Source of the DNA: an uncultured bacterium
Lineage (GTDB): Bacteria > T1Sed10-126
DNA: 56,582 nt
Direction: 5' to 3'
NCBI GenBank assembly: GCA_964566495.1
Contig: CAZMIT010000001.1
Location: 1-56,582 of the forward strand
Shown: positions 1,031-46,457 of the stretch, piece after piece
Layout of the letters: every line of letters starts with the position of its first letter
Numbering within the stretch: the first letter of the stretch is position 1
The notes under the pieces: model-generated
The model's input: the letters and a program-made list of their open reading frames with translations, nothing else
The model's database searches: none
Told to the model about the DNA's origin: nothing
Made by a program: the position numbers and the translations under genes

Positions 1031-1132
1031 ATATGATCCTCCTAATCAAAATCCGGTCCCAACAATGCCGTCCTGAACAGATAATAGTCCCTGTTAATAA
1101 TATCCCAAAATACGACGTAATTTTCAAGTCAA

Positions 1133-2752
1133 CTACATCTCTTCAGCAAACCAGCTGCGCAGCACCTGGGCGGCAGTTTCAGGATTGTCATCTACTGTTT
1201 CCTTAACCTGTTGAGCCATCTGTTCTTTTTCTTGTTGTTCAACCGAGACTTCAGCCATGAGATCACGCGCCGGCAGTTCGGGTTCCTCCTCGGGAGGCGC
1301 GGCCATTTCTTCCTCAGTCATTTGTTTTCGCCGCCGCTGCCAGAGCAACAGCAGCCCGGAGATAAAAAATGTTATTCCGAGAGCGATAGCGGCAAAATAA
1401 ATCACGCGACGACGGAAAGCCTCCTGACGCTCTTCTTCCAGCTGACGACGCATTTCATCCTCACGATCAAAACGCAAGTAGGAGACTTCTATCTGATCGC
1501 CGCGCTCCTCGTCATAACCAATCGCCGCTCGAGCCATACTTTGAATCGTTTCAATTTCCTCATCGGACGGCTCTTCATACTCCTGCACTATTTCTCCTGT
1601 CTCTTCGTCAACTTCTGTACTGTAGCGACCGTCAACACTTACAAGTGCCGACATCCGGGTGACCGCCGGGTCTTTCACAATCCGTTCCAGATTTTCATCG
1701 GCGTAATACTCAACCATACGTCGGTCTTCATCGTATCGGGTAAGATAATCGTCTTCCATCTCGTAACCGGGTATATTGGATTCGGTCCCCGCCGGTCCAC
1801 CGGGCTGTAAATCTCGCCCCTCCAACTCTCGACTTTCTTCCTGTTCCCGTCTGCGTAGCTGTTCAAAAGCTCCCTCGGGCATTCGATATTCCTTTATCTG
1901 CCGTTCAATTTCATCAAAATCCATGTCTACCGTTACCGCAACTGCCATCCGGTCACGGGTTAGCACCCGTCCGAGCGAGGACTGTAGTTTCCTCTCCAGC
2001 CGGTTCTCTATCTGACGCTTGACTTCCAGCTGCTGGGCCTGTTTCGTCGCTTCAGTATCCTCCGCATCAAAATCAGTTAAAACCCGGTTGTGCTGGTCCA
2101 TAATCGTGACGTTATTTCGATCCAACCCCACAACTCCGTAAGAGACAAGGTTAACAATCCCGTCAACCGTGGCGTCTTCAATATCAGTATAGGGGGCAAG
2201 CCGAAGCTGAACGGAAGCAGTAACCGGTTCCTCATCCTCTTTAAATAGAGCTTCCTCCTGGGGAAGAGCTATATTGACCGTAGCGTCTCGAATGTCGGGG
2301 TTAGAAACAATTGAACGTTCCAGACTGCCCTGCAGTGCCCGTTTATAGCGCATCTGACGTTCAAAGTTGGTTATCCCGATACCACCCTTTTCAAATATCT
2401 CAAAACCAACAGCGGTTTCAGGAAGCACATCGGCCTCGGCCAGTTCCAGGCGAAGCTCATCTACACGGGCCAGGGGAACTTTTACTACCTCCCGGTCGAC
2501 CCGGTGGGGAACTCCCATATCTTCAAGTTGTGCTGCTATCTGGGCGGCTTCCTGGGGGGCGAGATCACGGTTATAGAGTGGAACCCACTGGGGCTGAAAG
2601 GACCAGTACATGAGCACTGCCACAATAGCAACTGTTATTGAGACTATAACGATCAGTACTATTTGATTTTTTTGCGAAAGTCCAGCCCAAAAATCCGTTA
2701 ACTTTTCCCAAATTTGTTCCAAGATAGGCGGCATAACGATTCCCACTCCCAT
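1133..2752 (-). CDS. fliF: Flagellar M-ring protein FliF
   Basis: 539-aa ORF with an N-terminal TM segment, a large periplasmic region and a C-terminal TM segment followed by an acidic tail, which is the FliF architecture. It is positioned between fliE and fliG. The ATG at 2734 (M7, preceded by GGGAG) is a plausible alternative start. Confidence 0.88.
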   Translation of the reverse strand: MGVGIVMPPILEQIWEKLTDFWAGLSQKNQIVLIVIVSITVAIVAVLMYWSFQPQWVPLYNRDLAPQEAAQIAAQLEDMGVPHRVDREVVKVPLARVDELRLELAEADVLPETAVGFEIFEKGGIGITNFERQMRYKRALQGSLERSIVSNPDIRDATVNIALPQEEALFKEDEEPVTASVQLRLAPYTDIEDATVDGIVNLVSYGVVGLDRNNVTIMDQHNRVLTDFDAEDTEATKQAQQLEVKRQIENRLERKLQSSLGRVLTRDRMAVAVTVDMDFDEIERQIKEYRMPEGAFEQLRRREQEESRELEGRDLQPGGPAGTESNIPGYEMEDDYLTRYDEDRRMVEYYADENLERIVKDPAVTRMSALVSVDGRYSTEVDEETGEIVQEYEEPSDEEIETIQSMARAAIGYDEERGDQIEVSYLRFDREDEMRRQLEEERQEAFRRRVIYFAAIALGITFFISGLLLLWQRRRKQMTEEEMAAPPEEEPELPARDLMAEVSVEQQEKEQMAQQVKETVDDNPETAAQVLRSWFAEEM

Positions 2753-2912
2753 TCAAAATGTTAAGCTATCCAGTATTTATCAAGTTAAAAAAGTCTGTAA
2801 AGCCTTCACAGTGCAAAACACTTTCCGATTATTAAATTGTATTTGTGGGGCGCTAAACATGCACCTTGAATTTACAGATCAGCTAAGCCTTAAAAAGAAC
2901 AAGACCAAAAAT

Positions 2913-3251
2913 TTACTGCATCTGGGATAAGCGCTGGTAGGCATCCAGCAACTTCTGTCGCACCAGAGCAACGAGACGTATCGACATCTGAGCCTTCTGC
3001 TGGGCCACGGTTACATCATGAACATTATCAATTTCACCAGCGGCAAAAAGACGCATTTTTTCCTGCGCTTCTTCCTGTTTTCCTTCTACTTCGTTCAGTT
3101 TTTCTCCCAGAAAAGAAGTAAAATCCTCGGTAAGTTCTTTTGTGGTTGAGGTGGAGGGCTCCTCTGGGTCAGACAAAAGTGACATCTGACTCTGAGGGTT
3201 AATCGAGGTTATGTCGCTTGCTTCCTGCAATTTGCTTCCCTCCCATTCCAT
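2913..3251 (-). CDS. fliE: Flagellar hook-basal body complex protein FliE
   Basis: 112-aa ORF. The C-terminal 'VHDVTVAQQKAQMSIRLVALVRQKLLDAYQRLSQMQ' matches the conserved FliE C-terminus. It follows flgC as in canonical operons. Confidence 0.8.
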   Translation of the reverse strand: MEWEGSKLQEASDITSINPQSQMSLLSDPEEPSTSTTKELTEDFTSFLGEKLNEVEGKQEEAQEKMRLFAAGEIDNVHDVTVAQQKAQMSIRLVALVRQKLLDAYQRLSQMQ

Positions 3252-3348
3252 TCACTTAACTTCCATTCAGATCATAAATCTAAATTCCCCTGATCGATTG
3301 CGCTAAATGTAAGTATAAAGGGAAAAGAAAAAAATTGCAAAGATTTTT

Positions 3349-3798
3349 TTAATGAGCTATCTGTAAGGCTCTATTAAACATTTGTTTTGCTGATTCAACA
3401 GCGGTAGTATTTGCCTGGAAAGCGCGACTGGCCGTAATCATATCAACCATCTCCTTGACCGGTTCGACGTTCGGCTTCTCCACATAACCATCCTCCCCGG
3501 CATCGGGGTGGCTGGGGTCATGTACCCGTTTTGGCTCTCCTTCAGCTTCCGTTATTTCTGTAGCCCTGACACCACGTCCGCTATCCCGGGCGCTTAAACC
3601 CTGGCGGGGCAAAGAGATGAGTCCGGGGATCCCTCGTTCCTTCTTCTCTCGCGGCTCCAACCGTACCACTTTGCGCATGTAAGGTCCGCCATCCTCGGTA
3701 CGAGTCGTGTTGGAATTGGCAAGATTATCTGCAATCGTGTCCATACGCAGTCGTTCAGCAGTCATTCCTGTAGCCGATGTATCAATAGCTCCAAACAA
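3349..3798 (-). CDS. flgC: Flagellar basal-body rod protein FlgC
   Basis: The N-terminus 'MFGAIDTSATGMTAERLRMDTIADNLANSNTTRT' is the flagellar rod-protein signature. The C-terminal 'ASRAFQANTTAVESAKQMFNRAL' is also typical. Confidence 0.9.
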   Translation of the reverse strand: MFGAIDTSATGMTAERLRMDTIADNLANSNTTRTEDGGPYMRKVVRLEPREKKERGIPGLISLPRQGLSARDSGRGVRATEITEAEGEPKRVHDPSHPDAGEDGYVEKPNVEPVKEMVDMITASRAFQANTTAVESAKQMFNRALQIAH

Positions 3799-3811
3799 TT
3801 TTTATACCTCC

Positions 3812-4219
3812 CTAACGTTCAAGTGTACCCAGCAGTTGAGTCAGGTTGTTAAATTGCTTACGAGTCATCGTGGCAAGCCCGTTGTAATATAGAGTATTTT
3901 TGCTTAACTCAGCGGCTTCCTTGTCAGGATCAATATTGTTTTTGTCGTTGCGCATTGAGGTGTCGTCAACTTCGATAACTTCCGGCTGGACTTCGTCCCA
4001 GTCAGAATCAAACTCCCAGTCTCTGAAGGGCGAGGACCTGTCAAACTCATCCGGTATATATTTTTCCTTTAGCTGATCCTTGAAGGAAACATCACGACGT
4101 TTATAGCCCGGTGTGTTGGCGTTGGCAAGATTGTTAGAGAAAGCCTCGTGACGCTTGGTGGCTCCCCCCATGGCATCACGAAACATGTCAATTGTTCCCA
4201 TTTCCAATGATTGAGTCAT
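3812..4219 (-). CDS. flgB: Flagellar basal-body rod protein FlgB
   Basis: 'SNNLANANTPGYKRRDVSF' is the rod-protein N-terminal motif. At 135 aa it is the first gene of the flgB-flgC-fliE block. Confidence 0.85.
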   Translation of the reverse strand: MTQSLEMGTIDMFRDAMGGATKRHEAFSNNLANANTPGYKRRDVSFKDQLKEKYIPDEFDRSSPFRDWEFDSDWDEVQPEVIEVDDTSMRNDKNNIDPDKEAAELSKNTLYYNGLATMTRKQFNNLTQLLGTLER

Positions 4220-4316: not shown

Positions 4317-5219
4317 TTAAAAAGCTCGGGGATGGGCCTGATCGTAGATTTCCTTTAAGCGATCGGTGGATACATGCGTATAAATCTGTGTTGTTGAAAT
4401 AGTGGAATGCCCCAGAAGCTCCTGTACAGCCCTTAAATCGGCACCACGGTTAAGCATGTGGGTCGCACAGCTATGGCGAAAAACGTGAGGACTGATTGGT
4501 TTTTGGACGTCACAGCGGGCCTGGTATTTGTCAACAATATAACGGATGCCTCGCGAACTAAGAGAACCGCCTCTATTGTTCTGAAAAAGTGGGGCCTCAG
4601 AATCGGCGGTGACTTCCTTCCGATAATCTTCCAGCGCCTCGACCGCCGGCGGGCCAAGAGGCACTACACGCAACTTCCCCCCCTTGCCTGTCACTTCCAG
4701 TTGAGCTCTATCCGGGTCGTAGTCCCCCCACTTCAGGTTGCTAAGCTCCGAGACTCGGGCCCCGGTGGAATACAAAACTTCAAAGAGAGCCCGGTCACGT
4801 TTCTGGTTGTTGTCGTCCGACGAGGGAAGCTCAATAAACTGTGACATCTCTTTTTCGCTCCAAACGGTGGGAAGAGCTCGACTTGAATCCGTAAAAGAAA
4901 GGTCGGCGGCCGGATTGTCTTCCCTATCATTTCTGCGGGTTAAAAAGCCATAGAAAGCCTTTACAGCAGCCACTCGTCTTTCGACAGTGCTGTCGGCAAG
5001 CCCCCGTTCTCGCAGCCAGACTAAAAAGCTGCTCAACTGCTCCTCAGATGCTTCAAGTGGGGGAGTATCCTCAGAAATAGTATTTAGATACTGCTGAAGA
5101 ATCAATAAATCTTTTCGGTATGCACGTAGCGTATCGTCGGAATAGTTCTTTTCGTTGCGACAGTACTGGAGAAACCTTTCCACCGCCGGCGACGGCTCAA
5201 GCTCTATCTTTGAACTCAT
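4317..5219 (-). CDS. xerC: Tyrosine site-specific recombinase, XerC/XerD (CodV-like) family
   Basis: 300 aa. The N-terminal SAM-like domain reads 'YSDDTLRAYRKDLLIL'. Catalytic residues are visible in 'GARVSELSNL' (R), 'HVFRHSCATHML' (HxxR) and 'LGHSTISTTQIYTHV' (H and Y). Confidence 0.85.
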   Translation of the reverse strand: MSSKIELEPSPAVERFLQYCRNEKNYSDDTLRAYRKDLLILQQYLNTISEDTPPLEASEEQLSSFLVWLRERGLADSTVERRVAAVKAFYGFLTRRNDREDNPAADLSFTDSSRALPTVWSEKEMSQFIELPSSDDNNQKRDRALFEVLYSTGARVSELSNLKWGDYDPDRAQLEVTGKGGKLRVVPLGPPAVEALEDYRKEVTADSEAPLFQNNRGGSLSSRGIRYIVDKYQARCDVQKPISPHVFRHSCATHMLNRGADLRAVQELLGHSTISTTQIYTHVSTDRLKEIYDQAHPRAF

Positions 5220-5228
5220 TTGTACCGA

Positions 5229-6362
5229 CTATTTTACTCGAACTTCAAGATGGCGCAGGTCCTGGCTCTTTTGATAACGCTGACCGGGCAGCGCATGAAT
5301 AATATTTTCAGCTTCCAGGTCGAGCAACAAGCGCGAACACTCGCCTATGCTCAACCCGGTAGCTACGACGAGCTCATCAATATGAGAGGGTTTAAAACTT
5401 AGCTTCTGCAGCAATTCATTTGCCTCGCCAGAAATCTCCACCTTTTGTTCTTGCGGCGAAAATTGTCCCTCAAGCTGTAGAAAATCGACAACGTCTTCCA
5501 CGGATTCGACGAGCGCTGCCCCCCTCTTGATTAGCATATGGCAGCCACTGTGTTTGCCGTCCCCCACTGCACCGGGAACAGCATATACCTCCCGACCCTG
5601 CTCTAACGCAAAATCAGCCGTAATCAGCGCACCACTGCGCTGCGGTGCCTGAACTACTATCACCGCCCGGCTGAGACCGCTGATAATCCGGTTGCGAGCC
5701 GGAAAATGAGTCGGATGGGGCTTAGTGCCGGGCGGATATTCAGAAATCAATAGATGATCTTGGGCTAGCCGGTCGTAAAGTTTACGATTGCGTGCCGGGT
5801 AAACTCGATCAACGCCGGTGCCCAGGACAGCAACAGTATTTCCTTTCTCGAGCGCCCCTTTGTGGGCGGCGGTATCAATGCCGGCAGCCATTCCACTAAC
5901 AATTGTCAACCCCAATTCGGCAAGACCGCCACTCAGCTCGGTCGCTATTTCACGCCCCCCCTCACTGCAGCGGCGGGTCCCAACAATGGCGACAGAGGGT
6001 TCCGTAAGTAACTCCGGATGGCCCCGATAATAGAGAACGGGTGGCGGAGAATAAGTTTCCTTTAAAAAACGAGGATAGTGGGGGTCAACTTCGCTCAGCA
6101 ATCCTACATTTTTTTGCCTCAGACGCTCGGCGGCCTCCTCAATTTCCCACTGCTTCAACTTATCATGCAGCGAATCAAGGCTTAACCCCTGCAACTCTCG
6201 CAAATCTGCCTCATACAGGGTTTGCGGCGACTGAAATAACAGTTGGGCGGATTCTACTTGTTCCAGTATTTTGTGCAATATTTTTTCACCAACGCCGTCA
6301 ACACTACAAAGCAGCGCCCGTGCCACCGACTCTGGATTGGGCCGTTCAGGCTCGACTGTCAA
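5229..6362 (-). CDS. dprA: DNA-processing protein DprA (Smf)
   Basis: 377 aa. The Rossmann core motifs 'VAIVGTRRCS' and 'IVSGMAAGIDTAAHKGAL' are present, with a C-terminal winged-helix-like extension. Confidence 0.9.
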   Translation of the reverse strand: MTVEPERPNPESVARALLCSVDGVGEKILHKILEQVESAQLLFQSPQTLYEADLRELQGLSLDSLHDKLKQWEIEEAAERLRQKNVGLLSEVDPHYPRFLKETYSPPPVLYYRGHPELLTEPSVAIVGTRRCSEGGREIATELSGGLAELGLTIVSGMAAGIDTAAHKGALEKGNTVAVLGTGVDRVYPARNRKLYDRLAQDHLLISEYPPGTKPHPTHFPARNRIISGLSRAVIVVQAPQRSGALITADFALEQGREVYAVPGAVGDGKHSGCHMLIKRGAALVESVEDVVDFLQLEGQFSPQEQKVEISGEANELLQKLSFKPSHIDELVVATGLSIGECSRLLLDLEAENIIHALPGQRYQKSQDLRHLEVRVK

Positions 6363-23516: not shown

Positions 23517-23932
23517 TCTTTTGACCTCCTCAGCCTCTGAATTTTAAAAAAATTTTACCAACCCTATTTTTAGAGGGCGGATAATGATAATTTTTGTTAA
23601 GCTTAATGTAAAGAGAGTTTAGCTACTGAATACCGTATCTTTCCCTGCCATCTACTGTCTCCCCCTTATGGGGGTGAAATTAAGGCTGGAGGATAAAACG
23701 ACTAAGTTAATTATTAGAATTTACTTATTAAGTTTGACTATTATTCGCCGATAATTAAACATGCGTATGTATTAGGTTCCTTAATCTTTCTAATCTCTTT
23801 GTGAGGATAAGCAGAATGATATTTTTTGAAATTATTTTTAACCTTAACCAAATAGTAACCGCCTGGTTCCCAAACCCCGGCATGAATTCGGAGCAGTCCT
23901 CCGCCTTGCGTCAAATTGGCGAAGGTTTTCAA

Positions 23933-24880
23933 ATGGGACGCACCGATCCCCGTCATGTTTTGTTAGGGATTGTAACAATGCTCCTTATCCTCGGGGGAAT
24001 AGCCGGAATCATCTGGCTGCTTAACCAGTATAGGAAAAAGAAGGAGAAGAAGCTCACTATCCTTGAAGCCTACCAGAACAACTACCGCCTCAGTGACGGC
24101 CAGCAGCAGTATCTTGAGGCTCTGATTGAACGTTTCAAAAACAACTACGTTCACAACCCCGAGGTAGCTACGAGCTACCTAAAACAATTTCTTGAATATA
24201 GCGTCAAGAATCTTACCCACGCCCCCAGCCAGACACTGCGCCGACAGGTTCACAAGATACCCAATATTGAACCAGACGAAGAAATCCTTGTAATCTTAGG
24301 CGACAACGAAAAATTTGAAACCCTGACCACCACGGTGCTCCGGCAAAAAGACCGTTACTTAACTATCCCCACTTCGCCGGAGGTGGAAAACCTGGATCTA
24401 AACGAAGGACAGAGCGTTGAAATCAGCTCCCAGCAGGGCCATCTTCACTATCGCGGACGGGGGAAAATTCAAGCAGTGACAGAAGAAGAGACAATATTTC
24501 ACGTGCCCGATGGCATGCATTTTGATCAGCAGCGAGTCTATACCCGGGTTAGCGTCGACGATGACGATATAGAAGCTAAGTTATGTGTTCAATGTCCCGA
24601 TGACGAAACAATAGCCATATCAGCTGAACTCAAGGATATAAGTGTTGAAGGAGCCCGGCTTTTAGCCGACAAATCTGCCGCTGAAATAAGCAAGCATAAC
24701 CAGGGTACACTTGAATTTGAACTGCCGGACAGCGACATAATTAGCGTACGGATAGAAGTTGTCCGGGCACAAAAAGAAAATGGGAAGATTGATCTCGGGC
24801 TGAAATTTACAAATCTTAGCCTCGATACACGCGAGCATATTTCCCGATTTGTTAAGCAAAAAACTGAAGAAGAATCCTGA
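23933..24880 (+). CDS. Membrane-anchored PilZ-domain protein (putative c-di-GMP receptor)
   Basis: The C-terminal PilZ pattern is 'QQRVYTRV...' followed by 'DISVEGARLLAD...GLKFTNLS'. There is an N-terminal TM segment ('VLLGIVTMLLILGGIAGIIWLL'). The start was chosen at ATG 23933, with GAAGG 7 nt upstream; the ORF opens at 23801. Confidence 0.7.
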   Translation: MGRTDPRHVLLGIVTMLLILGGIAGIIWLLNQYRKKKEKKLTILEAYQNNYRLSDGQQQYLEALIERFKNNYVHNPEVATSYLKQFLEYSVKNLTHAPSQTLRRQVHKIPNIEPDEEILVILGDNEKFETLTTTVLRQKDRYLTIPTSPEVENLDLNEGQSVEISSQQGHLHYRGRGKIQAVTEEETIFHVPDGMHFDQQRVYTRVSVDDDDIEAKLCVQCPDDETIAISAELKDISVEGARLLADKSAAEISKHNQGTLEFELPDSDIISVRIEVVRAQKENGKIDLGLKFTNLSLDTREHISRFVKQKTEEES

Positions 24881-31373: not shown

Positions 31374-33515
31374 TTATACCGGTATTTTTGAAACTTTCGA
31401 GCAAAAACGATGCAGCCGACTGAGCCCGCCCAGCTTCACCTCACGGCGGTCAACATATTCTCCGGCAGGGCAGTCAAGAAACTGGCTGGGCTGGCGCCAC
31501 TTCCAACTTCCCATAATTTTGCGGCGCCAGGCGAAGGTTAAAACTACCTCCTTCCGGGCGCGACTGTAAGCCAGATAGAATAGCCGTTTTTCAATCTCAA
31601 GCTTGTTCGAATCAGGACGTTTGCCGAACGGATAAAGGGGCCAGGTCCCTTCTTCAAGCATGGCAATAATGACCACGTCAAACTCTCGTCCGCAGAGCAA
31701 TCGAGGTGTAGCAACAACTACTGCCTCTTCCTTGTCGACATTAGCCTCCCCAACCTCGCGAGCTCGAATTGAGTCCAGTAACTCTTTCAGAGCCGTAAAG
31801 CTTATAACATCTTTCACTCCAGGTAAAGCCTCCAACCGCTGGTGCATTTTACGTGCCTGGCGTAATAGACTTTTGTCTCGCGCCAGATTCATCTTTTCTT
31901 TTATCAATTCCAGTAATTTTAGCAGGGAAATATTCTCCCCTGAACTAATCAAGTTCTCCACAAATTCTCTCAAGTTATGTAAAAATTGCTTGCCGGTCGC
32001 GCTCTTAACGGGAAATCTCCCCGCCTGGAAAACTTCTTCAACCAAACGACCGGCGGCAGCAAAATTTCTGAGCCCCTCAGAAATTTCCGTCGGATGAAAT
32101 ATACGCAACAGTCGTAAAATATAAAAATCCGCCGAATTCCCCCGCTGCTGACCGGATTGGCTGAGTGCTACTGTCAAGCGAATTATCGACTCAACTATTC
32201 TCGGGACCTCCCGCGACCAAAAATTCATATTTTGTAATATAACCGAGCGACAGGACTTCCTGGCCAGTTGTTCCTTAATTACCATCTGCCGGTTATTCAA
32301 GCGGCTTACAACAGCTATGTCGGCGGGTTCTACCCCTTCATCTAAATACTTTATAACCTTGTGAGCTATGAACTTTTGCTCCTCATCGGCATTGATAGCT
32401 TCAAAAACTGCCGGCGCGGAGCCATATGCCAGGCCAGATTTGTCGCTCAAATTTGCCGGTTTTAACTCGGGATATTGATCTTTTTTAGTGTTCCCTTTAG
32501 CTTCCAGAACATCCATCAGGGCCGCCCAGAGCAGAGTTTTTAAGCGGTAATTTTTAGTCAGTGTCATTACACGCGATTCTGGAAAATAGAGCCGGAATTG
32601 TTCTCGACCATTAAAATCAACAGATTCCTCGTTGCCCCGGATCGTCAGCGGATCACCTGAAGCAAATATACGCTTGTCCGCTGACTCAAACTGGGTGAGT
32701 AAATTAAACTGCAGGGGCGTTAAACTTTGAAAGTCATCAACAAAGACTATCGAATAATCGGTCAAAAACTGCTTGCCTAACTGTGGGTGCCGCCGGAACA
32801 GGTCGATAGAAACAAACAAAAGATCGGCGTAATCAAGGGCGTTACGTTTTCTTTTTAAGCGCCAGTATTTCCTATAAAAAGTAACAACGTCCTGTTCTTT
32901 TCCGGCCGCATTTTTTTGTAACGACTCGGAGGGAATCATCAGCTGACGACGATATTTGCCAGCCTGTCTGTAATAATATTCCGCTTTTTCTGACTTTAGC
33001 CCGCCCGCTGATGTTTCACAGACTAATCGCCACAAGTCGCGGGCCTCGCTACCGCTCAGCAGGTAGAAGTTGTCATCATACGACGAATCAAACTGTTTTA
33101 GAAGTATCTCACCCCGGTAAGTCTCCGTTAATAATTGCAAGCAAAAAGCGTGAAAACTGTAAATTTTATGCGTCGGCGGACTAAAATTAAATTTACGAGC
33201 AACCGATTGACTAAATTTTTGGCGGCGCCGGCGAAGGTTGGCCGCCGTCTCCGCGGACGGTGCCAAAATAAGTAACTCTTCTCCAGGCGCTTGCAACAGT
33301 TCGGAGAGAAAAATGGCTCGTATGAGCAATTCCGTCTTCCCCACACCTGCCATACCCTGCAGGTAAATTGAGTTGTCATCTTTGAAATAGTTTTGGAGTA
33401 TTAAGCGCTGCCGATTATTTAACTCCGGGGGGGTATCAAGGTAAGCTTTCGCTTGAGCACGCTTGGCTGGCCGTAAATGCTGAAAATTTTTCTCGACAGG
33501 GGAATTCCCTGGCAA
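31374..33515 (-). CDS. UvrD/Rep/PcrA-like superfamily-1 helicase (divergent)
   Basis: The Walker A motif is 'GMAGVGKTE'. The Walker B-like motif is 'IVFVDDFQSL' (canonical DEFQD). It also has 'LTKNYRL' and the C-terminal 'GREFDVVII...EKRLFYLAYSRARKEVVL...PSQFL'. Confidence 0.7.
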   Translation of the reverse strand: MPGNSPVEKNFQHLRPAKRAQAKAYLDTPPELNNRQRLILQNYFKDDNSIYLQGMAGVGKTELLIRAIFLSELLQAPGEELLILAPSAETAANLRRRRQKFSQSVARKFNFSPPTHKIYSFHAFCLQLLTETYRGEILLKQFDSSYDDNFYLLSGSEARDLWRLVCETSAGGLKSEKAEYYYRQAGKYRRQLMIPSESLQKNAAGKEQDVVTFYRKYWRLKRKRNALDYADLLFVSIDLFRRHPQLGKQFLTDYSIVFVDDFQSLTPLQFNLLTQFESADKRIFASGDPLTIRGNEESVDFNGREQFRLYFPESRVMTLTKNYRLKTLLWAALMDVLEAKGNTKKDQYPELKPANLSDKSGLAYGSAPAVFEAINADEEQKFIAHKVIKYLDEGVEPADIAVVSRLNNRQMVIKEQLARKSCRSVILQNMNFWSREVPRIVESIIRLTVALSQSGQQRGNSADFYILRLLRIFHPTEISEGLRNFAAAGRLVEEVFQAGRFPVKSATGKQFLHNLREFVENLISSGENISLLKLLELIKEKMNLARDKSLLRQARKMHQRLEALPGVKDVISFTALKELLDSIRAREVGEANVDKEEAVVVATPRLLCGREFDVVIIAMLEEGTWPLYPFGKRPDSNKLEIEKRLFYLAYSRARKEVVLTFAWRRKIMGSWKWRQPSQFLDCPAGEYVDRREVKLGGLSRLHRFCSKVSKIPV

Positions 33516-33611: not shown

Positions 33612-33656
33612 TTAAAAAAGGCGCCCTTACCCCGCCAGAACCAGCGGAGTAAGGGC
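33612..33656 (-). terminator. Rho-independent terminator after the 212-aa comEA-like gene
   Basis: On the minus strand, GCCCTTACTCCGC-TGGTTCTG-GCGGGGTAAGGGC forms a 13-bp stem with one G-U pair. It is followed by GCC TTTTTT. Confidence 0.55.
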
Positions 33657-33720
33657 ATTTTCATCAAACTTTTCCCATCAACTACCGCATCTCAGCGACA
33701 AGATGGATTCTTACCAACGG

Positions 33721-34359
33721 TTACTCGACAGTAGCCTCAGGACGAATGTTGTCCAACGTGGCCGGACCAATACCGCTCACGTTAGCAAGGTCGTCGACAG
33801 ACTCAAAATCACCGTGTTCTTCCCGGTAACTTATGATGTCATCCGCTGTGGCGGGACCAACGCGATGTAATTCCGTTAACTCGTCAGCGGAAGCAGTGTT
33901 GATGTTGATAAGATCTGCTTCGTCAACATCGACTTCTTCCTCTTCTTCCTCAACGCCGCGAATTGTATCAAGCGTCGCCGGTCCAATCCCACTAACATCT
34001 GTCAACTCATCAACACTGGAAAAAGGCCCGTGCTGGTCACGATAAGCAATAATGTTTCCGGCTGTCGCGGGACCCACACCGTCGAGAGCGGTCAACTCAG
34101 ACTCTGTCGCAGTGTTTAAATCAATTCCCTGGACGAGAACTTCCTCGGCCTCTACCTCGGGTTCCGGTTCGGGAGCTTCCACCGGGTCAGGTTCCGGGGC
34201 CGGTTCCGGTTCTTCTGGCACTTCCGGAGCCTCCGGGGCTACCGGTTCTTCCGCCGGTGCGGGCGGTTCTGCCGGGTCAGGTTCTTCCGGTTCCTCGGGT
34301 CCACAACCCAGCGTAAACACCAGGGCCAGGGCAGTTAAACAAACAACAAAATACTTCAC
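33721..34359 (-). CDS. comEA: ComEA-like lipoprotein with two tandem helix-hairpin-helix DNA-binding domains
   Basis: It has a lipobox ('FTLGCG') and a Pro/Glu-rich linker. Two ComEA units are present, 'IDLNTATESELTALDGVGPATAGNIIAYRDQHGPFSSVDELTDVSGIGPATL' and 'ININTASADELTELHRVGPATADDIISYREEHGDFESVDDLANVSGIGPATL'. Confidence 0.8.
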   Translation of the reverse strand: MKYFVVCLTALALVFTLGCGPEEPEEPDPAEPPAPAEEPVAPEAPEVPEEPEPAPEPDPVEAPEPEPEVEAEEVLVQGIDLNTATESELTALDGVGPATAGNIIAYRDQHGPFSSVDELTDVSGIGPATLDTIRGVEEEEEEVDVDEADLININTASADELTELHRVGPATADDIISYREEHGDFESVDDLANVSGIGPATLDNIRPEATVE

Positions 34360-34502: not shown

Positions 34503-35552
34503 TTATGGACCCAGGAAAGGAAAAGGGTCCGTCTCAACTCTTATTGATTCCCCGTCAGTAAATAAGATTACATGACCGAGCTGATCAGTGCGGAAAATTT
34601 CTCGCACTCCCCTGTTTTCAAGATTTGAAACTACTTCAGGGGACGGAAGCTCGTCGTCCGGGCCTGCTTCTGAGGTAGAAATCAAGGCATAGTCCGGCTG
34701 AACATATTCCAAAAAGGCCTCCGCCGTCGAATCTTCTGAACCGTGATCAGCCACCTTCAGAACATCGGCCGATAACCTATTGCCCCATCGATATGTTAGT
34801 GATTCCTCCTTATCTTCTGGTAGATCACCGGGAAAAAGAAAACTAACCTCGCCAAATTTAACGTAAAGTACGTGGCTGGCCGCCTCCGGGTGACGCTGTT
34901 CGGGATCACCATAAATTACCTCCGCTTTCACAGAAGCACCAAAGTCCAGCTCTGCACGATCTTGCAGCTCACGCCTGGTAACTCCCTGTTGTTCAGCAAG
35001 CTCAACAAGCCTCTGGTAAGCGTTAAAATGTGGTTCGTAACCAGTTAAATAAATTTTCCCGACATCTACTCCACCTGCCTCCAGCAGATCCGGCTGAACA
35101 CCCAGGTGGTGACTGTAAGGTACAAGATTCAACATTTTATCAATTTTTTTCAGACCTATCCGGGAAAAGAAAGGTAGATATAAACGCGGTGCCCAGTTAT
35201 AGGCTCGAACTCCACGTTCAGCCGGGTCGGCTCCCTCCCCCCCGTCAATCAGGACTGTTTTGTTGTCGGGGGCCTGGAGTAAAAATCCATCACCATAGCC
35301 AACGTCAAACATTACCACTGCAAATTCTTCCGGTTCGCGGCCGGGGATAGTGCCGTCCCCCAGAATTTTTACTCCATCGGCAAACTGATCCACTCCAAGC
35401 AGAAAATCAACATAAGCAGGGGCGGCGTAATACCAGAGTCCCGCTGCCAGAGCCAGCAGAACAAATATTATGACCCAGCCTAACAGAGAGGGCTCCTCAA
35501 CTACTTCTTCTGGATCAACTTCCTCTTCAAAATCTGAAAATCTCCGGCCCAT
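34503..35552 (-). CDS. Membrane-anchored ComEC-type metallo-beta-lactamase-fold protein (stand-alone)
   Basis: There is an N-terminal TM segment. 'VVMFDVGYGDGFLLQAPDNKTVLIDGGEG', 'FLFPGDL' and 'LKVADHGSEDS' parallel the ComEC C-terminal domain, but the HxHxDH position reads 'PYSHHLG'. Confidence 0.7.
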   Translation of the reverse strand: MGRRFSDFEEEVDPEEVVEEPSLLGWVIIFVLLALAAGLWYYAAPAYVDFLLGVDQFADGVKILGDGTIPGREPEEFAVVMFDVGYGDGFLLQAPDNKTVLIDGGEGADPAERGVRAYNWAPRLYLPFFSRIGLKKIDKMLNLVPYSHHLGVQPDLLEAGGVDVGKIYLTGYEPHFNAYQRLVELAEQQGVTRRELQDRAELDFGASVKAEVIYGDPEQRHPEAASHVLYVKFGEVSFLFPGDLPEDKEESLTYRWGNRLSADVLKVADHGSEDSTAEAFLEYVQPDYALISTSEAGPDDELPSPEVVSNLENRGVREIFRTDQLGHVILFTDGESIRVETDPFPFLGP

Positions 35553-35584
35553 CTTTTCGCCTGCCTTCCCTGATAGAAAAATTG

Positions 35585-35721
35585 TAACTACTCACCTTAT
35601 CCCCCCCTTAACGGGGGGAAAACAAAGGGGGGTGAAAAACGGTTTTTAAGACCTTTTTGCCCCTCACCCCCGAATCAAGTCCGGGGCAGGCTCTGACCGA
35701 GAGGGGATAGATGAGTAGTTA
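35585..35721. repeat. MITE-like element of about 137 nt with imperfect terminal inverted repeats
   Basis: The termini are 'taactactcaccttatcccc' (35585-35604) and 'ggggatagatgagtagtta' (35703-35721). Internally there is a 'ccccccc ttaac gggggg' hairpin and a 'cccctcacccc' motif. Confidence 0.55.
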
Positions 35722-35728
35722 TGAAAAA

Positions 35729-36607
35729 TTAATGAACAACAGCCATTTCACGTATTTCCTCCAGCGTAACCGGCCCGATACCGGAAATATTTTTCAATTC
35801 CTCCAGGTTATCAAATCCACCACGTTCCTCCCTGTATTCAACAATTTCAGCAGCACGCACGGGGCCCACCCGGGGTAATTTTACTAAATCCTGCTGACTG
35901 GCCGAATTAATATTAATTCGGTCGGGCTCGCTGACCGCCGGCGCAGCGGGAGCTGTCGCTTCGTCGAGGCGGACGTAATCTTCCATTTGCTGAATAGTTG
36001 CCGGCCCCAGGCCGTCAATATTTTGTAACTCTTCCAGGCTTGCAATCCCCCCCTGTCGCTCCCGGTAGCTAATTATCTCCTGCGCCGTCACCTCTCCAAC
36101 CCGGGGCAATTCCTTCAATTTATCAATATCCGCTTCATTTATATCTATCTCCGGCCCTGCCTCCTCCTGCGGTAAATCTGCGACAACCACGTCAGGTCCG
36201 ACGGTTGCTTCCGGTCGAATGTTTTCAACCGTCGAGGGTCCGATACCGCTTATTTCCTTCAAATCATCGATAGTCCTGAACTGGTTACCGGCCTCCCTGT
36301 ATTCCAGTATACTCTTTGCCGTCGCCGGACCTACCTGGGGGAGCTGCTGTAGTTCCTCAAAAGAAGCAGCGTTGACGTCAATCTTCCAGTCGAGTTCAAT
36401 CCGCTGTTTCTCGGACTCTGAAGTGACATAAAGATTTAGTTCTGTTTCGGGAAGTTTGTTCAGTTTGGGGGAAGGCAACTCTCGATCTTCTTCGCCGCTT
36501 ACTTCATCCGCGTGGTAAGTCTCATAGCGCATCGACACACCCGGTAGGGCAATAATACACAAAAAAACCAGCGCTAAGACAAAAAACAGCTGATCCTTAT
36601 TCACCAC
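35729..36607 (-). CDS. comEA: ComEA-like membrane-anchored protein with three tandem helix-hairpin-helix domains
   Basis: There is an N-terminal TM segment. Three units of the form 'N.A...(E/D)L..LP.VGP..A..I..YRE..G.F....(E/D)L..I.G(I/L)GP.T' are present. Confidence 0.8.
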   Translation of the reverse strand: MVNKDQLFFVLALVFLCIIALPGVSMRYETYHADEVSGEEDRELPSPKLNKLPETELNLYVTSESEKQRIELDWKIDVNAASFEELQQLPQVGPATAKSILEYREAGNQFRTIDDLKEISGIGPSTVENIRPEATVGPDVVVADLPQEEAGPEIDINEADIDKLKELPRVGEVTAQEIISYRERQGGIASLEELQNIDGLGPATIQQMEDYVRLDEATAPAAPAVSEPDRININSASQQDLVKLPRVGPVRAAEIVEYREERGGFDNLEELKNISGIGPVTLEEIREMAVVH

Positions 36608-36641
36608 AAACTCCTCCCCTGCTATAGGTTAGAGCCGCGGT

Positions 36642-39600
36642 TTACCAGCCAGTTTCTCTGGCGTCGGCATCTTCAATTTCCCCCTCGGCCGTCCAATCAT
36701 GAAACTCTTCAGGACGATTATAGGGGATCGCCGACAGTTCGCGACCATCTGTCCGAAAAATAACGGAGCCGTCTACTTCTGTGAAAAATAAACGGTCTAT
36801 CGGAAAGTGCTGCTGGTATTGCTCCAGCGTATTTTCCACTCCGTCCGCGACAAATCGGGGTTCAATTTCAATATAAGTTGAGGAGGAAAAGACTACATAA
36901 TCCGGATCAACTGCGTCCAAGAAACTACGGTTAAAACTGGCATCACCAGCGCCGCTGGACGGCACAGACATTACATTGTTGTCCACGTAAAGGTCCTGCA
37001 TCGCCATTATATCTTCTTGGGCTTCTTGTTCTATATCGCCGGGCAAAAGAAAGGAGACGTCACCATACTGTATTTGAAAGACTATCGACTGATTTGCGGC
37101 TCCGTTTTCACTGTAATCGGGACGGGGCGGAGGATTTAAAGCATAAACCTCTAAATCCACGTCCCCATGCGGATAGGAGTTGCGTTCCGCATAAACACGC
37201 TGACCCCGCTCAGCCCGTTCATAAGGGATATTTTTTCTCTTAAGCTGTTTCCACCAGCGCTCCCAGTTGCCGTAATAATCGTTCTGAAACCAACTGGCGT
37301 TCTGATATTGAGCGTAATGATCGTCCTGGAGGGCCTGCACGAAACGTCCCCTTGTCAAGCCCCCATTGGATGGAGCTAAAATCTGCTCGGCAAAAGGTCC
37401 CATTGCCCTGTCAACTACGAAATGTTCAGCCATGTATGCCATGCCGCCACTGCGCCGGGGATGAGCTGACTGCAAGGCCAACAAATCAAGTGTTTTAACC
37501 CCGTGGTTCAGAAAAAATTTAGATACCGTCTGCCGGCCCGTATCCCGCCGGTCAGCAAGATTATCACGATCATGCCAGTCCCATTTGCGACTGCCGGCAT
37601 TAAACAATAAATTGCTCCCCGCCGGCGTCCGGAGGGCTATCGCTTCTCCGTAGCCAACATCAATAAAAGTTAGCTCCAGCTTGTCCGGGTTTTGATGAAA
37701 AGTAAAGGAGGCCAGAAAAACTAACACCACCACCAGCCCGATAAAACTTGCTACTGCAGTCGAGGGTGCCATTGGAGCAACGTCAAATAATTTGTCAGAC
37801 AACCAGAACCAGAAACGTTTTAAGAGCCCATAAACCGTATCCCACCAAATAAATACAGCCAGACCACCGTAAAAAACCAGCAAATGCCAGGGTGTAAAAG
37901 CACTGACTGCCGGATAGGGAAATATTTCAACAGCTATATGTGATACCCAGAGAAATAAAGTCACTGCCAGGTAGTTACCGGCATTTAAGACCAGCGCAAG
38001 CCAGGGTCCAATCGTGGGAATTAACCCTAATAAACCGGCGAAAAGCCCCAGGGGGACAACCACACTAACCAGTGGGATTGCAGCAAAATTAGCAAATATT
38101 CCCGCAAAGGGGTACTCCTGGAAATAATAGGCGCTCAGAGGCAGCATCATACCAATTTGAATTGCAAACTGCATAGCAATGAAACTGCGCAGTGGTCCGG
38201 GAACATCCAGGAAACCAATCCCCCCGGCAATAATATATTGGTTGTCGACCTTCGAGGCATACCAGAAAGCAAGCGCCCAGAAAGCAATATATGGGATATA
38301 AACATACCAGGTCAAAAAAGTGTTCCAGTAAAAGACCAGTAACAGAACAGTCAGCGTCGCAACAATCCAGAAGAGAATAAAACTTAAACCGCTTAGTTTC
38401 TGTAAGATCTGGTCGGCCGGTCCTGATATTAACGCAAGACATAACACAGCGGCAAAGGAAAGGGTAAAGGAGGCTTCAAACACGTAACGGGGGCTAAAAA
38501 TCAGTATTAATAAAGCTGCGACAGACACCCCCACCAGCACCGAATTACGCAGACCCTGGTCCAAAAAAGCAAAGGTAAGCAACATCAGGCTGGTCATGAT
38601 AGCGGCCCGTACCGTAGCCGGTCGCGCTCCGGTAATTATGGTAAATATTACCAGTGAAACGATAATAAGCGGTACATAGAGCTTGGCCGGTATACGCAAA
38701 CCGGCGAAAAGTGCCCAGAAAGCAGCGGCAATTACACCAACGTGAAGCCCGGAAACTGCCAGTACGTGCATTGTCCCGGCCCCGCGAAACTCTTTCTCAA
38801 TTAATCTCGCTTCTTCTTCTTCCTCCATAAAGGGGGTCGTTGAATATTCAAGACCTTCCCTCAATCCCAGTGTCGCCCCCCCGAGAAAGGCCGATTGTGG
38901 ATAGGGCATCGTTAACTTTATAACTTTCAGCATCTCTTCCTGCAAGGCCAGCGACCAGGTTACAATTGGATTCCCCCCCTCATCATCTATGATTTCTACG
39001 GTTTGCGGAGTCCACATTGTCCCAAACATGCCCATGTTATTTAAATATTCTTTATAACTGAAACCCCTGGGGACTGTACGATCCATTGGTTCCCCCAACT
39101 CACCGGAGACCCGTATTTTATGACCGTAAACCTGGTTCCGAGCGAAGTAATCGTAGTCATAATCCCCCCATGGCCTCACCTGTATTAATATATCCCCGCC
39201 ACTAACCTCATGTTCTCTTTCCATGGCAGGAGTTTCCCATACCCTCTCCGGTCGCATTCTAAGTCGAGTTTTGTCCTCATACACCTCGGGAGCAGCCACC
39301 ACTCGCCCTTCAATGACTCGGTGGTCTTCCCGTTCTTCTGATAAGTATTCGGTTATGTGACCGGGATAAAGCTCCCCCAGGCTCAAAGAATACCGTCCCT
39401 GGCCAATCAGAAAGGCTGTCGCAATAAGAAGACAATAGAAAGCAATTCGCAGGTAGTATGAACTCCGCGCCCCAAGCGACTTATTTCTTTCAAACCAGAA
39501 TACACCCACTGTAATAATTGCCAGAACAATTACAACTGACCAGAAAGTGGGCTGTCCCTGGGGATAAATCGGATAGAATACACCAAGCGCAATTCCAAGG

Positions 39601-44600: not shown

Positions 44601-46457
44601 CATTTCACCTTCGACTTCTGGTGGGATTACAATGTTCCAATCAGCGATTTCTGCAAGAGTATATAAAACGTTCTCCAGGGGTTCATCATACAGTTCCAGC
44701 TCCAATATCTTTGAGCGGGCGCACAACTCAAATTCAACAATTAAATCCTCTTTTGCTTGCGCTGTTACCCGAGCTGTTCTCTCGTCACCAGGAACTCGAT
44801 AAGAATCAACCACCGCCCGGCCATCCGGGCCGCTGCTTATTTTCACTTCAACACCTTCCGGCGTTAAATCGTCTTGTGAACGATCAACTTGAAGAACCCC
44901 TTTACCCGACCGGTCAATATAATGCACTCGTACATCAGGCACAGGATTACCATATTGGTCGCGAGCTTCAACGACCAGCGACTCTCGAACTAATTCCCCC
45001 CTCCGGGCCTCCTGCCGGTCGCCGGAAATCTTGACTAATTCAACCGCATCACAGGGTTCCACAACCAGATTGAAATCGACGCTTAAATCCTCAAGTCCCG
45101 GAACCCGAGCTTCAACAACCGTCGGGCCGGCTTGCTCTACAGCGATAAAAGTCAGCTCAGCCCGCCCCTGCTCGTCAGTCTTGATTTCATACTTCCCACT
45201 AAATTCTCCCCCCTCTTCCCCCAACAGCCCTTCACCCTCTACAACTTCAAAAACAACATTTTCTTCCCTGAGCGGTTCCCCCTCCTCATCCCTAACTTCA
45301 ACCACCAGGGGCTCAGCCGCTTCCTCAGTCACTTTAACCTCCTGTTGCTCTCCACTCACAACCTCTATTTGTTCTTGCACTTCTTCCGGCAGTTCCTCGA
45401 TATCCTCAAACGGTGTGTCCGGCTCGACAACCGTTGGCTCTACCTCGGGGGGCAGTTCTTTTTCATAGACATCAACAATAATTTTGTTACCGGGACTCAG
45501 CCGGTAAATCTCATAATTATCAACCCACTGGTCAAGATCGACGACAACCCTGGTTGTTTTTACGGGATCAATTCGATACTGGCTGTGCCGTATACGACGA
45601 ATATTAAACATGCCAACGCTAAGGGGAGACTGGGGAAGATCAGGTATTGTGTTTGGAATGTCAACAACAATCATTGGCGGATTATAAATACGTGAGGTTA
45701 AGTAGCTCAAGCCACCTGTGGCTTCTATGGTTATGCGAATAAACTCATCAAAAGATTCAACTTCAACTCCATGTATGACTTCCATACCAGAAGGCGGAGA
45801 TACCGGCTCCTCTGTATAAAATCGTTTTGTTTCGCCTGACTCCGTCCCTTCTAATTCCTCCGCTTGTCGTTCTTCTCTCTGAACCTCTTCTAATTCTTCC
45901 TCTTCAAGCGGATCAAATTCAGGAACAATGTCAGTATCCAAATCCTCCGCCTCTATTTCCGCCAGGGGCTCACCAACAATCTCAACTTCAGATGTATCAT
46001 AAGCAAACGGTTCCTCACCCTCTGGTTCTATCTCTTCCACCTCTTCAACTGCCACCCCCGGTTCCTCGCTGGCTAAAGTTTCTTCCTCAGAAGCTTCAGC
46101 TTCAGACTCATCGCCCTCTTGAGCAGGATCAGACCCAATCTCTTCGCTTCGGCTTTCTGGAGTTTCCGGCGACAAATCTTCTTCCTTGATTTGGTATTGA
46201 TCCGGATTCCCGCCTAACTCCTGATAAAAATCACGGGCCCTTGGTTCATCTGGATTTTGACGCAGGATCTCCGCAAACATCTCGCGCGCCTGCTGATCAT
46301 TCCCCTGGACGTATTCGTTGATTGCATCCGAAAGCTCCAGCGAAGTAGAAAAGAGGGGGACGCTCAGAAAACTTAAAAAAACTGCAACAAGCAGAAAGGT
46401 TTTCCCTATTTTCTGCCAGCACTTCCTCCATGAAGAACGACTGCGTTTGAAAAGCAT
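41616..46457 (-). CDS. pilQ: Giant type IV pilus / competence secretin PilQ with AMIN, Ig-like, multiple N-domains and ComEA-like C-terminal extension
   Basis: 1613 aa with a signal peptide and a TPR-like helix pair. It has an AMIN domain ('MIVVDIPN...TTRVVVDL'), two Big-like domains, and an STN/N0 domain ('LELYDEPLENVLYTLAEIADWNIVI'). About 8 N1-like beta-alpha-beta-beta-alpha units follow. The secretin core reads 'VLVQDGHTVVLGGLIED...GIPLLREIPVIGNLFK...LIFFITPHVI'. A 204-aa tail follows the core. Confidence 0.85.
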   Translation of the reverse strand: MLFKRSRSSWRKCWQKIGKTFLLVAVFLSFLSVPLFSTSLELSDAINEYVQGNDQQAREMFAEILRQNPDEPRARDFYQELGGNPDQYQIKEEDLSPETPESRSEEIGSDPAQEGDESEAEASEEETLASEEPGVAVEEVEEIEPEGEEPFAYDTSEVEIVGEPLAEIEAEDLDTDIVPEFDPLEEEELEEVQREERQAEELEGTESGETKRFYTEEPVSPPSGMEVIHGVEVESFDEFIRITIEATGGLSYLTSRIYNPPMIVVDIPNTIPDLPQSPLSVGMFNIRRIRHSQYRIDPVKTTRVVVDLDQWVDNYEIYRLSPGNKIIVDVYEKELPPEVEPTVVEPDTPFEDIEELPEEVQEQIEVVSGEQQEVKVTEEAAEPLVVEVRDEEGEPLREENVVFEVVEGEGLLGEEGGEFSGKYEIKTDEQGRAELTFIAVEQAGPTVVEARVPGLEDLSVDFNLVVEPCDAVELVKISGDRQEARRGELVRESLVVEARDQYGNPVPDVRVHYIDRSGKGVLQVDRSQDDLTPEGVEVKISSGPDGRAVVDSYRVPGDERTARVTAQAKEDLIVEFELCARSKILELELYDEPLENVLYTLAEIADWNIVIPPEVEGEMLSDMRVSINLDEVSALRALDTILAMHDLARVSDGNVIRIVSAAQVRREGVPVVEPEEIDLHPGSNMVTVQYSLSFLDEAQRLASDLRGALMSEEGEVFADDRRNAIVVTDYARNQRQLKKVIEGIDQPDERFDVTVIRLQYRDPEQLREEIDQLLPTGRGEIVANIAANSLLIYSDPTLLSRIELLVDKLDAPGVISDHFRFVEMEGYDVEQIADQVTAILGGQAIDLDEIDVDVDIEDPGDLEDLRIEREIEDYLNQVTIVPVETLESILLFAPPEIQEIAIEMMEAMKRRPGEYIDDRHWRWVSVHNIHFEEAASLIDRMGGITIQTTIPAQAAFLLSSTEPAYLDRLEGFLEEVDRDIEVDDGREIITYTPRQVEPDQLGDDLEDYYEDMHEFYDDELEERPRVLYAEEDLLVLVVSQNEARFIRRLLEKLEEMATVDHEVLTYSPRFVDASDLASELDDRNIGRILYEGDHRFSILIPQDNIEYYRKLIEEVDSPQIVTNVYQLRNTRAEEIVETLQEAEGADVSDFAVSFSHDGPTNTIIYSTPQNLVPQVEELIKQLDQWQRQVFIEGIILEYTLDEEEQYGARWIFDPDQSPLEEDVSLVESGGGYLGGEEFHAILNQDQFHAVLRFMEEERETEIMAKPQISAINNRSAVFSKGQTEFYDEMVGPIGERVPEQRERDAVTMLSVTPTITRDRFVRMDLELRKDDFVGDDRRDENRIENSVLVQDGHTVVLGGLIEDEISFSEFGIPLLREIPVIGNLFKTSQETVSKNELIFFITPHVIEDPADAERTTRMISEQLHQITPVPINLNIDGIHQITRLEGLAEEAEEREQIARQIIEYREEVGPFLSLDDVLEVPAVDHEVLSELLAHEIELEVDVNMVTAEELMSIKNIDPDAAQALIEKRQGLEMIRDLEICREILIEHGVDPDFYDEYLEPVFTITSPALEERDFAAPEPDREEVEEELEELDVLDEDEPDNDQREQLPDLEQF

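Follow-up and report, generated by a model that had tools for sequence, protein, structure and literature searches.

Two metallo-β-lactamase (MBL) domains of the ComEC type are encoded in the DNA-uptake operon of an uncultured, extremely halophilic bacterium, one at the C terminus of the channel protein ComEC and the other in a separate membrane-anchored protein. Judged by its aligned motifs, neither module has the residues for the canonical two-metal mechanism. The operon lies in a 56,582-nucleotide stretch of DNA, hereafter the window (contig CAZMIT010000001.1 of assembly GCA_964566495.1), from the candidate phylum Salsurabacteriota (GTDB T1Sed10-126), a lineage of extreme halophiles. The DNA-uptake genes form part of a type IV pilus and competence supercluster and occupy the minus strand, as do all window features described below unless stated otherwise. 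ComEC (1003 amino acids, 36642-39653) consists of N-terminal transmembrane helices with an OB fold (DUF4131), the Competence channel domain and a C-terminal MBL-fold domain (residues 659-1003, 36645-37679). The anchored protein, P0001 (349 amino acids, 34503-35552), is a stand-alone ComEC-type MBL identified by HMMER, TIGR00361, AlphaFold 2 (AF2) and Foldseek. Our leading, though tentative, explanation is that the C-terminal domain (CTD) of ComEC is a conserved, ligand-depleted pseudo-nuclease, and that the anchored partner, which could support single-metal chemistry at most, is the sole candidate in the operon for residual activity.

The nuclease domain of N. glycerini ComEC serves as the reference. 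It binds two Mn2+ ions and cuts DNA, and its functional residues are H598-x-D600-x-D602-H603 (motif II), D700, H725 and S728 (PMC12455585, PMC8579336). Alanine substitution of most of its metal-coordinating residues leaves it virtually inactive, as is the case for each of H598A, D600A, D602A and H603A, and every substitution that reduces nuclease activity, except S728A, abolishes transformation (PMC12455585). A first-pass annotation of the window, made by eye, had given the canonical motif II as HxHxDH. This needs correction: in ComEC CTDs the second position of motif II is occupied by Asp, and motif III contains Asn (PMC8579336). The characterised Bacillus and Moorella proteins carry H-x-D-x-D-H and the motif III Asn (PMC8579336, PMC12455585).

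The register of the motifs was set in three ways: with HMMER against the Protein Data Bank (PDB) chains 9ic4, 9vc6 and 30bt, with MAFFT, and with a profile built from 111 canonical relatives. All three place the strings quoted in the first-pass annotation on motif II, D700 and H725/H726/S728. The strings are found at the coordinates given for them, their register is right, and mis-registration by eye was rejected as an explanation for their unusual appearance. The ligand columns are 94-100% conserved in the profile: among the 111 relatives, His occupies position 598 in 107, His or Asp position 600 in 107, Asp position 602 in 111, His position 603 in 110, Asp position 700 in 111, His positions 725 and 726 in 110 and 111, respectively, and Ser position 728 in 104. 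Because these columns are nearly fixed, the deviations in the window are real departures and not family noise. At positions 598, 600, 602, 603, 700, 725, 726 and 728 the reference has H, D, D, H, D, H, H and S, the ComEC CTD has S, H, R, R, D, S, S and A, and the anchored protein has V, Y, H, H, D, D, H and S. The His of the canonical FGHP motif is absent from both window domains, which are 22% identical to each other (E 3e-10). Motif II of chain 9vc6 reads H-G-A-E-A-H; it is presumably an engineered D-to-A, nuclease-dead variant and was not used as natural variation.

The window ComEC matches Pfam Competence (PF03772) with an E value of 1.1e-35 (123.8 bits against a cut-off of 23) and DUF4131 with 1.5e-16. 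The structure of the N. glycerini OB domain, 9iew, is only a weak Foldseek match (rank 46, E 0.043). The protein has no match to Pfam Lactamase_B (PF00753), and its score against TIGR00361 (ComEC_Rec2) is 131.8 bits, short of the cut-off of 190.05. By sequence, it is a member of a divergent long subfamily. The AF2 model of the full-length chain has a mean predicted local distance difference test score (pLDDT) of 90.4 and a predicted template-modelling score (pTM) of 0.89. The CTD of about 345 residues, the first of which (residue 659) is encoded at 37677-37679, is related to 9ic4 in sequence (HMMER E 4.8e-18) and has 9ic4 as its top Foldseek match (E 7.7e-17, TM(target) score 0.84).

The order of motifs I-V is kept in the ComEC CTD. 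Motif I reads 'DVGYGE' (37644-37661). The motif II remnant, 'QSAHPRRSGG' (37443-37472), takes the place of the canonical S-T-H-P-D-A-D-H-I-G-G and has S-x-H-x-R-R at the ligand positions; its orthologues follow the pattern QS.[EQH]P[QRH][RHY].GG. The N-x-S element with the motif III Asn is retained as 'ANQS' (37086-37097), and both N854 and S856 are invariant in the orthologues. Motif IV, 'LLPGDI' (37032-37049), keeps the bridging Asp, D873, which is likewise invariant. In the motif V remnant, 'VPSSGAGDAS' (36936-36965; canonical VPHHGS), both His residues and the Ser are gone. The motif III Asn and the motif IV Asp are thus the only ligands left in the domain, the four of motif II and the two motif V His residues having been lost. 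This bears out the earlier claim that most metal ligands are missing. Since all four motif II ligands are replaced and drift among orthologues, and since the corresponding mutants of the reference enzyme are inactive, the alignments support the conclusion that the ComEC CTD is unable to form a two-metal centre.

The drift is evident in a set of 17 ComEC orthologues that are 43-91% identical. Position 598 is Ser or Ala in these proteins, position 600 is His, Gln, Glu or Leu, position 602 is Arg, Gln or His, and position 603 is Arg, His or Tyr, while the motif V pair appears as SS, SN, SH, AN, AY, GN or AS. Such variation is expected where selection on the former ligand positions is relaxed. Taken over its full length, however, the domain is conserved. 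Its mean pairwise identity is 46%, compared to 43% for the OB region, and 39 of its residues are invariant across the orthologues. These include W691, D692 and H694 of a clade-specific insertion, 'RKWDWHDRD' (37563-37589), and F789, D792, W797, R799 and W801 of an aromatic-rich insertion between motifs II and III, WFQNDYYGNWERWW (37251-37292). We read the ComEC CTD as a probable conserved pseudo-enzyme, not a decaying remnant. Its conservation, which equals that of the OB fold, makes a role in DNA binding or as a scaffold plausible. The closest orthologues also share a C-terminal tail, D-V-x-[EQK]-T-G-W (36645-36662 in the window), which could be a docking peptide.

One way around this reading would be that the ComEC CTD is still a nuclease whose ligands have migrated, for example to D692 and H694 of the insertion together with N854 and D873. 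The invariance of W691, D692, H694, N854, S856 and D873 across the 17 orthologues fits such a migration, and so does the position of the WDWH insertion in the loop after the DGG strand. This loop borders the active site in MBL folds. Against it, the residues at motifs II and V vary freely from orthologue to orthologue, and the consensus of the wider subfamily lacks the WDWH insertion. Migrated ligands are the least probable of the explanations considered here.

The anchored protein matches ComEC chains in HMMER searches (E 6.5e-18 for 9vc6, 2e-17 for 9ic4 and 4.5e-15 for 30bt) and the C-terminal part of TIGR00361 (1.1e-20); it falls below the gathering threshold of Pfam Lactamase_B (21.1 bits compared to 22.7). 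Its AF2 model has a pLDDT of 92.2 and a single N-terminal transmembrane helix. This anchor comprises residues 23-48 (35409-35486; helix 23-52 in the AF2 model) and shows a GW...W..A.P.Y pattern common to the window protein and to canonical anchored orthologues, which are described below. The top Foldseek match is again 9ic4 (E 6.3e-23, TM(target) 0.87).

Motif I of the anchored protein is 'DVGYGD' (35289-35306). In motif II, 'VPYSHHLG' (35100-35123), H598 is replaced by Val and the Asp or His at 600 by Tyr, D602 has become His (H148), and H603 is retained as H149; the family pattern is [VT]-x-x-x-H-[HY]. Motif III reads E-A-A-S in the window protein, and its Asn is missing from all family members. 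Motif IV, 'FPGDL' (34821-34835), contains D243. In motif V, 'VADHGSED' (34731-34754), the first His is replaced by Asp, the second is present as H270, and the Ser is kept in the window sequence. In standard MBL terms, H148, H149, D243 and H270 belong to metal site 2, and all site 1 ligands are lost.

The family of this protein comprises P0001-P0010, P0241-P0245, P0247 and P0249. H148, which stands where canonical enzymes have the general base D602, occurs without exception in the 16 members that cover motif II, and H270 (the former H726) is invariant except for a Gln in P0242. Residues 149 and 243 co-vary: all 12 members with H149 have D243, and all 4 with Tyr149 have a residue other than Asp at 243 (His in three and Gly in P0242). 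The exact probability of this pairing, with phylogeny ignored, is 1/1820, and the co-change occurs on at least three separate branches of a neighbour-joining (NJ) tree. The conserved and co-varying site 2 set argues that the anchored protein has been remodelled and is not simply dead. The four residues probably cluster at one site, and most likely the protein still binds one metal. The earlier claim that both copies of the domain are non-canonical stands as far as the motifs go, but the two are not equivalent, since the ligand positions of ComEC are relaxed and the anchored copy keeps its site 2 set. The family ends in a conserved [AP]-F-P-F-L tail (34503-34520 in the window), which the canonical orthologues lack and which could also be a docking peptide.

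Judged from its motifs, the degenerate CTD is not confined to the window locus but characterises a very large subfamily of ComECs. Among the 120 best ComEC homologues, all of them long (970-1170 amino acids) and, where annotated, assigned to Kiritimatiellia, Verrucomicrobia, Hydrogenedentota and Dependentiae, the first motif II His (H598) is missing in 119 and motif II is intact in none; matches to Pfam Lactamase_B are limited to 6 of them. Most of them read S-x-[LR]-x-E-R at motif II. This pattern is strongly conserved in P0140-P0240, long ComECs mostly from Kiritimatiellia and Verrucomicrobia, in which D700 and H725 are mostly kept. The ComEC MBL domain may therefore have another non-canonical state that is distinct and conserved in its own right. 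Surveys of ComEC domain evolution that are based on Pfam, such as PMC6299819, would score the long ComECs as having no nuclease domain.

The gene order ndk, micro open reading frame (micro-ORF), ComEC, ComEA, MBL and, in some cases, a further ComEA is kept in the Salsurabacteriota contigs L001-L008, of which L006 and L008 are fragments that show it only in part. The contigs include those of the metagenome-assembled genomes (MAGs) T1Sed10_126, with a protein 89% identical, and DAL-3Gt_29_1_96C5R, which has been proposed as the type of Ca. Salsurabacterium abyssinicum in the phylum Salsurabacteriota, an extreme halophile with an acidic proteome (bioRxiv 10.1101/2024.03.10.584303). In the Ca. Salsurabacterium abyssinicum MAG (L001:6181-9142, the same contig as L007), the ComEC coding sequence is broken into overlapping frames at the junction of the channel with the C-terminal MBL-fold domain, and the anchored MBL is intact; the split could be a frameshift, an assembly error or natural.

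Two further loci, L010 and L012, have the same ComEC-ComEA-MBL order and an anchored MBL that is fully canonical (L010:11634-12665 and L012:5326-6432). The motifs of these proteins are HPHSDH or HTHDDH, NNSS, TGD, HHG(S/G) and FGHP, and both proteins reach the Pfam Lactamase_B threshold, whereas the Salsurabacteriota family lies below it. As in the window, they have a cytoplasmic tail, one transmembrane helix and a periplasmic MBL; unlike the window protein, they keep every ligand. Over its full length, the N-terminal cytoplasmic tail and transmembrane helix included, the L010 protein shares 36% identity with P0001 (E 2e-66). In the NJ tree, the non-canonical anchored family forms a single clade within the canonical MBLs. 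When 1.84 billion representatives were searched exhaustively, only about 8 clusters, at 50% identity, had the non-canonical pattern. A metagenome-wide scan that started from the canonical anchored MBLs found mostly ordinary fused ComECs or stand-alone ComEC-type MBLs without a nearby ComEC, and only L015 resembled L010. In themselves, stand-alone ComEC-type MBLs are abundant in metagenomes, mostly away from ComEC. The L010 and L012 loci suggest that the nuclease can be encoded apart from ComEC and so lend comparative support to the earlier proposal that nuclease activity has moved elsewhere.

An adjacent MBL does not always accompany the degenerate CTD, being absent from the Hydrogenedentota locus L011, from L013 and L014, and from the Kiritimatiellia locus L009. 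In L009, a NERD-domain gene (L009:6835-7590) is found just upstream of the ComEC with the dead CTD, and in L014 a gene with two PLD domains (L014:9278-10699) is convergent to the long ComEC with a dead CTD. NERD and PLD are nuclease-associated folds.

The simplest history for this distribution would have three steps. The ComEC CTD would have degenerated early in the long-ComEC subfamily; a stand-alone MBL anchored in the inner membrane would have served as the nuclease in some lineages; and site 1 of this anchored MBL would have disappeared in a single event at the origin of Salsurabacteriota. In the ancestor of this phylum, the anchored protein would then have been stripped of all its site 1 ligands, as well as of the FGHP His and the His on the substrate side, with the general-base Asp changed to His. 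In ComEC itself, purifying selection would have kept the MBL fold while the binuclear metal centre was dismantled. The MBL domain is architectural at the channel entrance in full-length ComEC (PMC13539106), and the pseudo-nuclease may keep such a role at the channel mouth in positioning, strand handling or docking. The anchored protein, tethered in the same compartment as ComEC and presumably co-expressed with two ComEA receptors, would be the only candidate in the operon for a weakened or altered phosphodiesterase chemistry on the non-transforming strand.

Several points weigh against a residual activity of the anchored protein. Its physical partnership with ComEC is deduced from gene order only. 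Any residual activity would have to use a different mechanism, as H598A, D600A and D602A each leave the reference enzyme virtually inactive. Outside site 2 the family is relaxed: position 728, that of the 5'-phosphate Ser, varies among Ser, Ala, His, Asp, Tyr, Gly and Arg, H725 varies and the FGHP His is lost. Such a relaxed shell is as compatible with a non-catalytic role or a structural metal as it is with catalysis. One member, P0242, is without D243 and H270 too. Finally, a nuclease may be encoded elsewhere, the window being 56 kb of the genome.

These points give weight to a rival explanation, according to which both MBL modules are fully non-catalytic: they would guide DNA or act as scaffolds and hold no more than a structural metal, and the non-transforming strand would be degraded by an unrelated nuclease encoded elsewhere or displaced while single-stranded DNA is taken up. 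The relaxation or loss of H725, S728 and the FGHP His in the anchored family makes this almost as probable as the favoured explanation. It agrees with the loss of all site 1 ligands and of the general base D602, with the further loss of site 2 in P0242 and with the inactivity of the single-ligand mutants of the reference enzyme (PMC12455585). It has a precedent in S. pneumoniae, where the ComEC CTD is substituted and EndA is the nuclease, and strand displacement has been raised as a possibility (PMC8579336). Hydrogenedentota L011, with its degenerate CTD and no adjacent MBL, indicates that some relatives manage without the anchored protein. On the other side, the invariance of H148 and the co-change of residues 149 and 243 suggest that the site is still selected as a unit, though a structural metal would explain this also, and the ORFs scanned in the 56 kb window yielded no secreted nuclease domain, whether EndA-like, NucA-like or of another kind. 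On a less probable reading, the dead MBL of ComEC and the site-2-only paralogue would dock at the channel mouth as a composite strand-processing module, which would work with one metal or only bind and peel the strand. More doubtful still is a role of the anchored MBL as an active hydrolase of substrates other than incoming DNA (envelope or nucleotide phosphodiesters), its place in the operon then being incidental. The phosphorylcholine esterase Pce (1wra, 2bib) is the second-best structural match in Foldseek, and the abundance of stand-alone ComEC-type MBLs away from ComEC is in line with such a function. The gene, however, lies between two ComEA genes and after ComEC, its position is kept across the whole phylum and two further lineages, and its closest relatives in both sequence and structure are ComEC nuclease domains.

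Compared with the canonical ComEC nuclease domains (N. glycerini 9ic4 and the CTDs of M. thermoacetica and B. subtilis), the window domains have the same fold (TM(target) 0.84-0.87), and the ComEC CTD also shares the periplasmic C-terminal position, the motif order and the motif IV Asp. Unlike them, it is without any motif II or motif V ligand, and the anchored paralogue has the site 2 set only, with D602 changed to His. The closest precedent for the arrangement is S. pneumoniae, in which the ComEC CTD has substituted ligands and strand degradation is performed by a separately encoded, membrane-bound nuclease, EndA (PMC8579336). The likeness has limits. EndA has an unrelated nuclease fold, whereas the trans factor of the window is a paralogue of the ComEC domain itself, and, unlike EndA, it is itself non-canonical. 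Furthermore, the pneumococcal substitutions are conservative (H to N, D to E, D to N), whereas those of the window ComEC are radical.

A ligand-depleted MBL that is kept as a scaffold beside another MBL, or fused to it, occurs in CPSF73/CPSF100, IntS11/IntS9 and the two halves of ELAC2, and chains of Integrator, CPSF73 and ELAC2 are among the weaker fold matches of the window domains. Those pairs have one fully canonical catalytic partner, whereas the window locus has none; it also lacks a β-CASP domain, and a pairing is suggested by gene adjacency. Subclass B2 MBLs, such as CphA, work with the site 2 ligands only (120, 221 and 263 in standard numbering) after loss of a site 1 His. CphA would resemble the anchored protein in its mononuclear site 2, and differs in its carbapenem substrate and in its ligands (Asp/Cys/His compared to His/His/Asp/His). 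A ComEC-type MBL that works in this way is hypothetical.

The uptake cluster begins, at its far end, with genes for a histidine kinase, a sigma-54 response regulator, PilM(N), PilO, a 233-amino acid ORF and a 1008-amino acid Ig-repeat protein. These are followed by the secretin, a 398-amino acid membrane protein, ndk (39863-40276), the micro-ORF (39700-39870), ComEC, ComEA, the anchored MBL and a second ComEA. The PilM and PilO genes are thus further upstream of the secretin. The PilQ-type secretin (1613 amino acids, 41616-46457) has the Pfam domains AMIN, Secretin_N and Secretin and C-terminal ComEA-like helix-hairpin-helix (HhH) repeats. These HHH_3 repeats, at residues ~1430-1490, precede a very acidic tail, and the same fusion is present in the L001 secretin; the protein is an outer-membrane pore with a built-in DNA-binding module.

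The first ComEA-like DNA receptor (35729-36607) contains three HhH (HHH_3) units (Pfam HHH_3 E 2.7e-61, TIGR01259 comEA 7e-54). The second ComEA-like protein (33721-34359) contains two, together with an acidic Pro/Glu-rich linker (HHH_3 2.6e-45, TIGR01259 3.3e-45). Directly 3' of its gene, a consensus scan found a terminator-like hairpin with a 16-bp stem and a T run (33622-33657), the only one within the ComEC-ComEA-MBL-ComEA unit, and it likely marks the end of this unit. A promoter scan was uninformative, with 15 found compared to 11.1 expected. Past the hairpin, directly after the ComEA genes, is a gene for a UvrD-like superfamily 1 (SF1) helicase (31374-33515). Such a helicase likewise lies right after ComEA in the Hydrogenedentota locus L011 (L011:6115-8460) and may be a cytoplasmic motor or processing factor tied to uptake.

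The micro-ORF directly upstream of ComEC encodes a single-pass transmembrane protein of ~56 amino acids. Homologues of it (~50 amino acids, motif DYR..I.ESNK.YYP), often overlapping the ComEC start, were found at L001:6068-6226, L002:3453-3608, L009:7808-8017, L010:7821-7991, L011:710-892, L013:4273-4425 and L014:5839-5997, that is, in every long-ComEC locus examined (the window and 7 others, from several phyla). The micro-protein has no match in Pfam and is likely an unrecognised partner of the long-ComEC subfamily. Elsewhere, the window encodes DprA (5229-6362), the cytoplasmic factor that loads single-stranded DNA in transformation, a XerC/D-type recombinase (4317-5219), flagellar basal-body proteins (FliG, FliF and rod proteins; 17-4219) and, on the plus strand, a PilZ-domain protein (23801-24880).

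A non-exhaustive literature search found no paper on degenerate ComEC MBL domains as pseudo-enzymes and none on an anchored MBL of the ComEC type encoded in an operon. Published work puts the share of ComECs without a nuclease domain at about half, and how the strand is removed in these is an open question (PMC8579336, citing PMC6299819). The present analysis points to hidden domains, in that a large group of ComECs scored as having no nuclease domain retain its fold, apparently as a conserved pseudo-enzyme. The canonical anchored MBL found in the same operon in at least two lineages is a concrete candidate for a nuclease in trans. In one halophilic phylum the trans copy appears to have been cut down to a single conserved metal site, which raises the question of whether two-metal cleavage is needed for uptake, and the canonical and remodelled anchored proteins offer a directly assayable comparison. 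If the ComEC CTD and the anchored paralogue do dock, they would be a bacterial counterpart of the eukaryotic pairs of active and inactive MBLs. On this wider reading, many 'nuclease-less' ComECs would conceal a pseudo-MBL, and in some of them cutting would be left to a separately encoded, anchored MBL, which would answer part of the question of the fate of the non-transforming strand in such bacteria.

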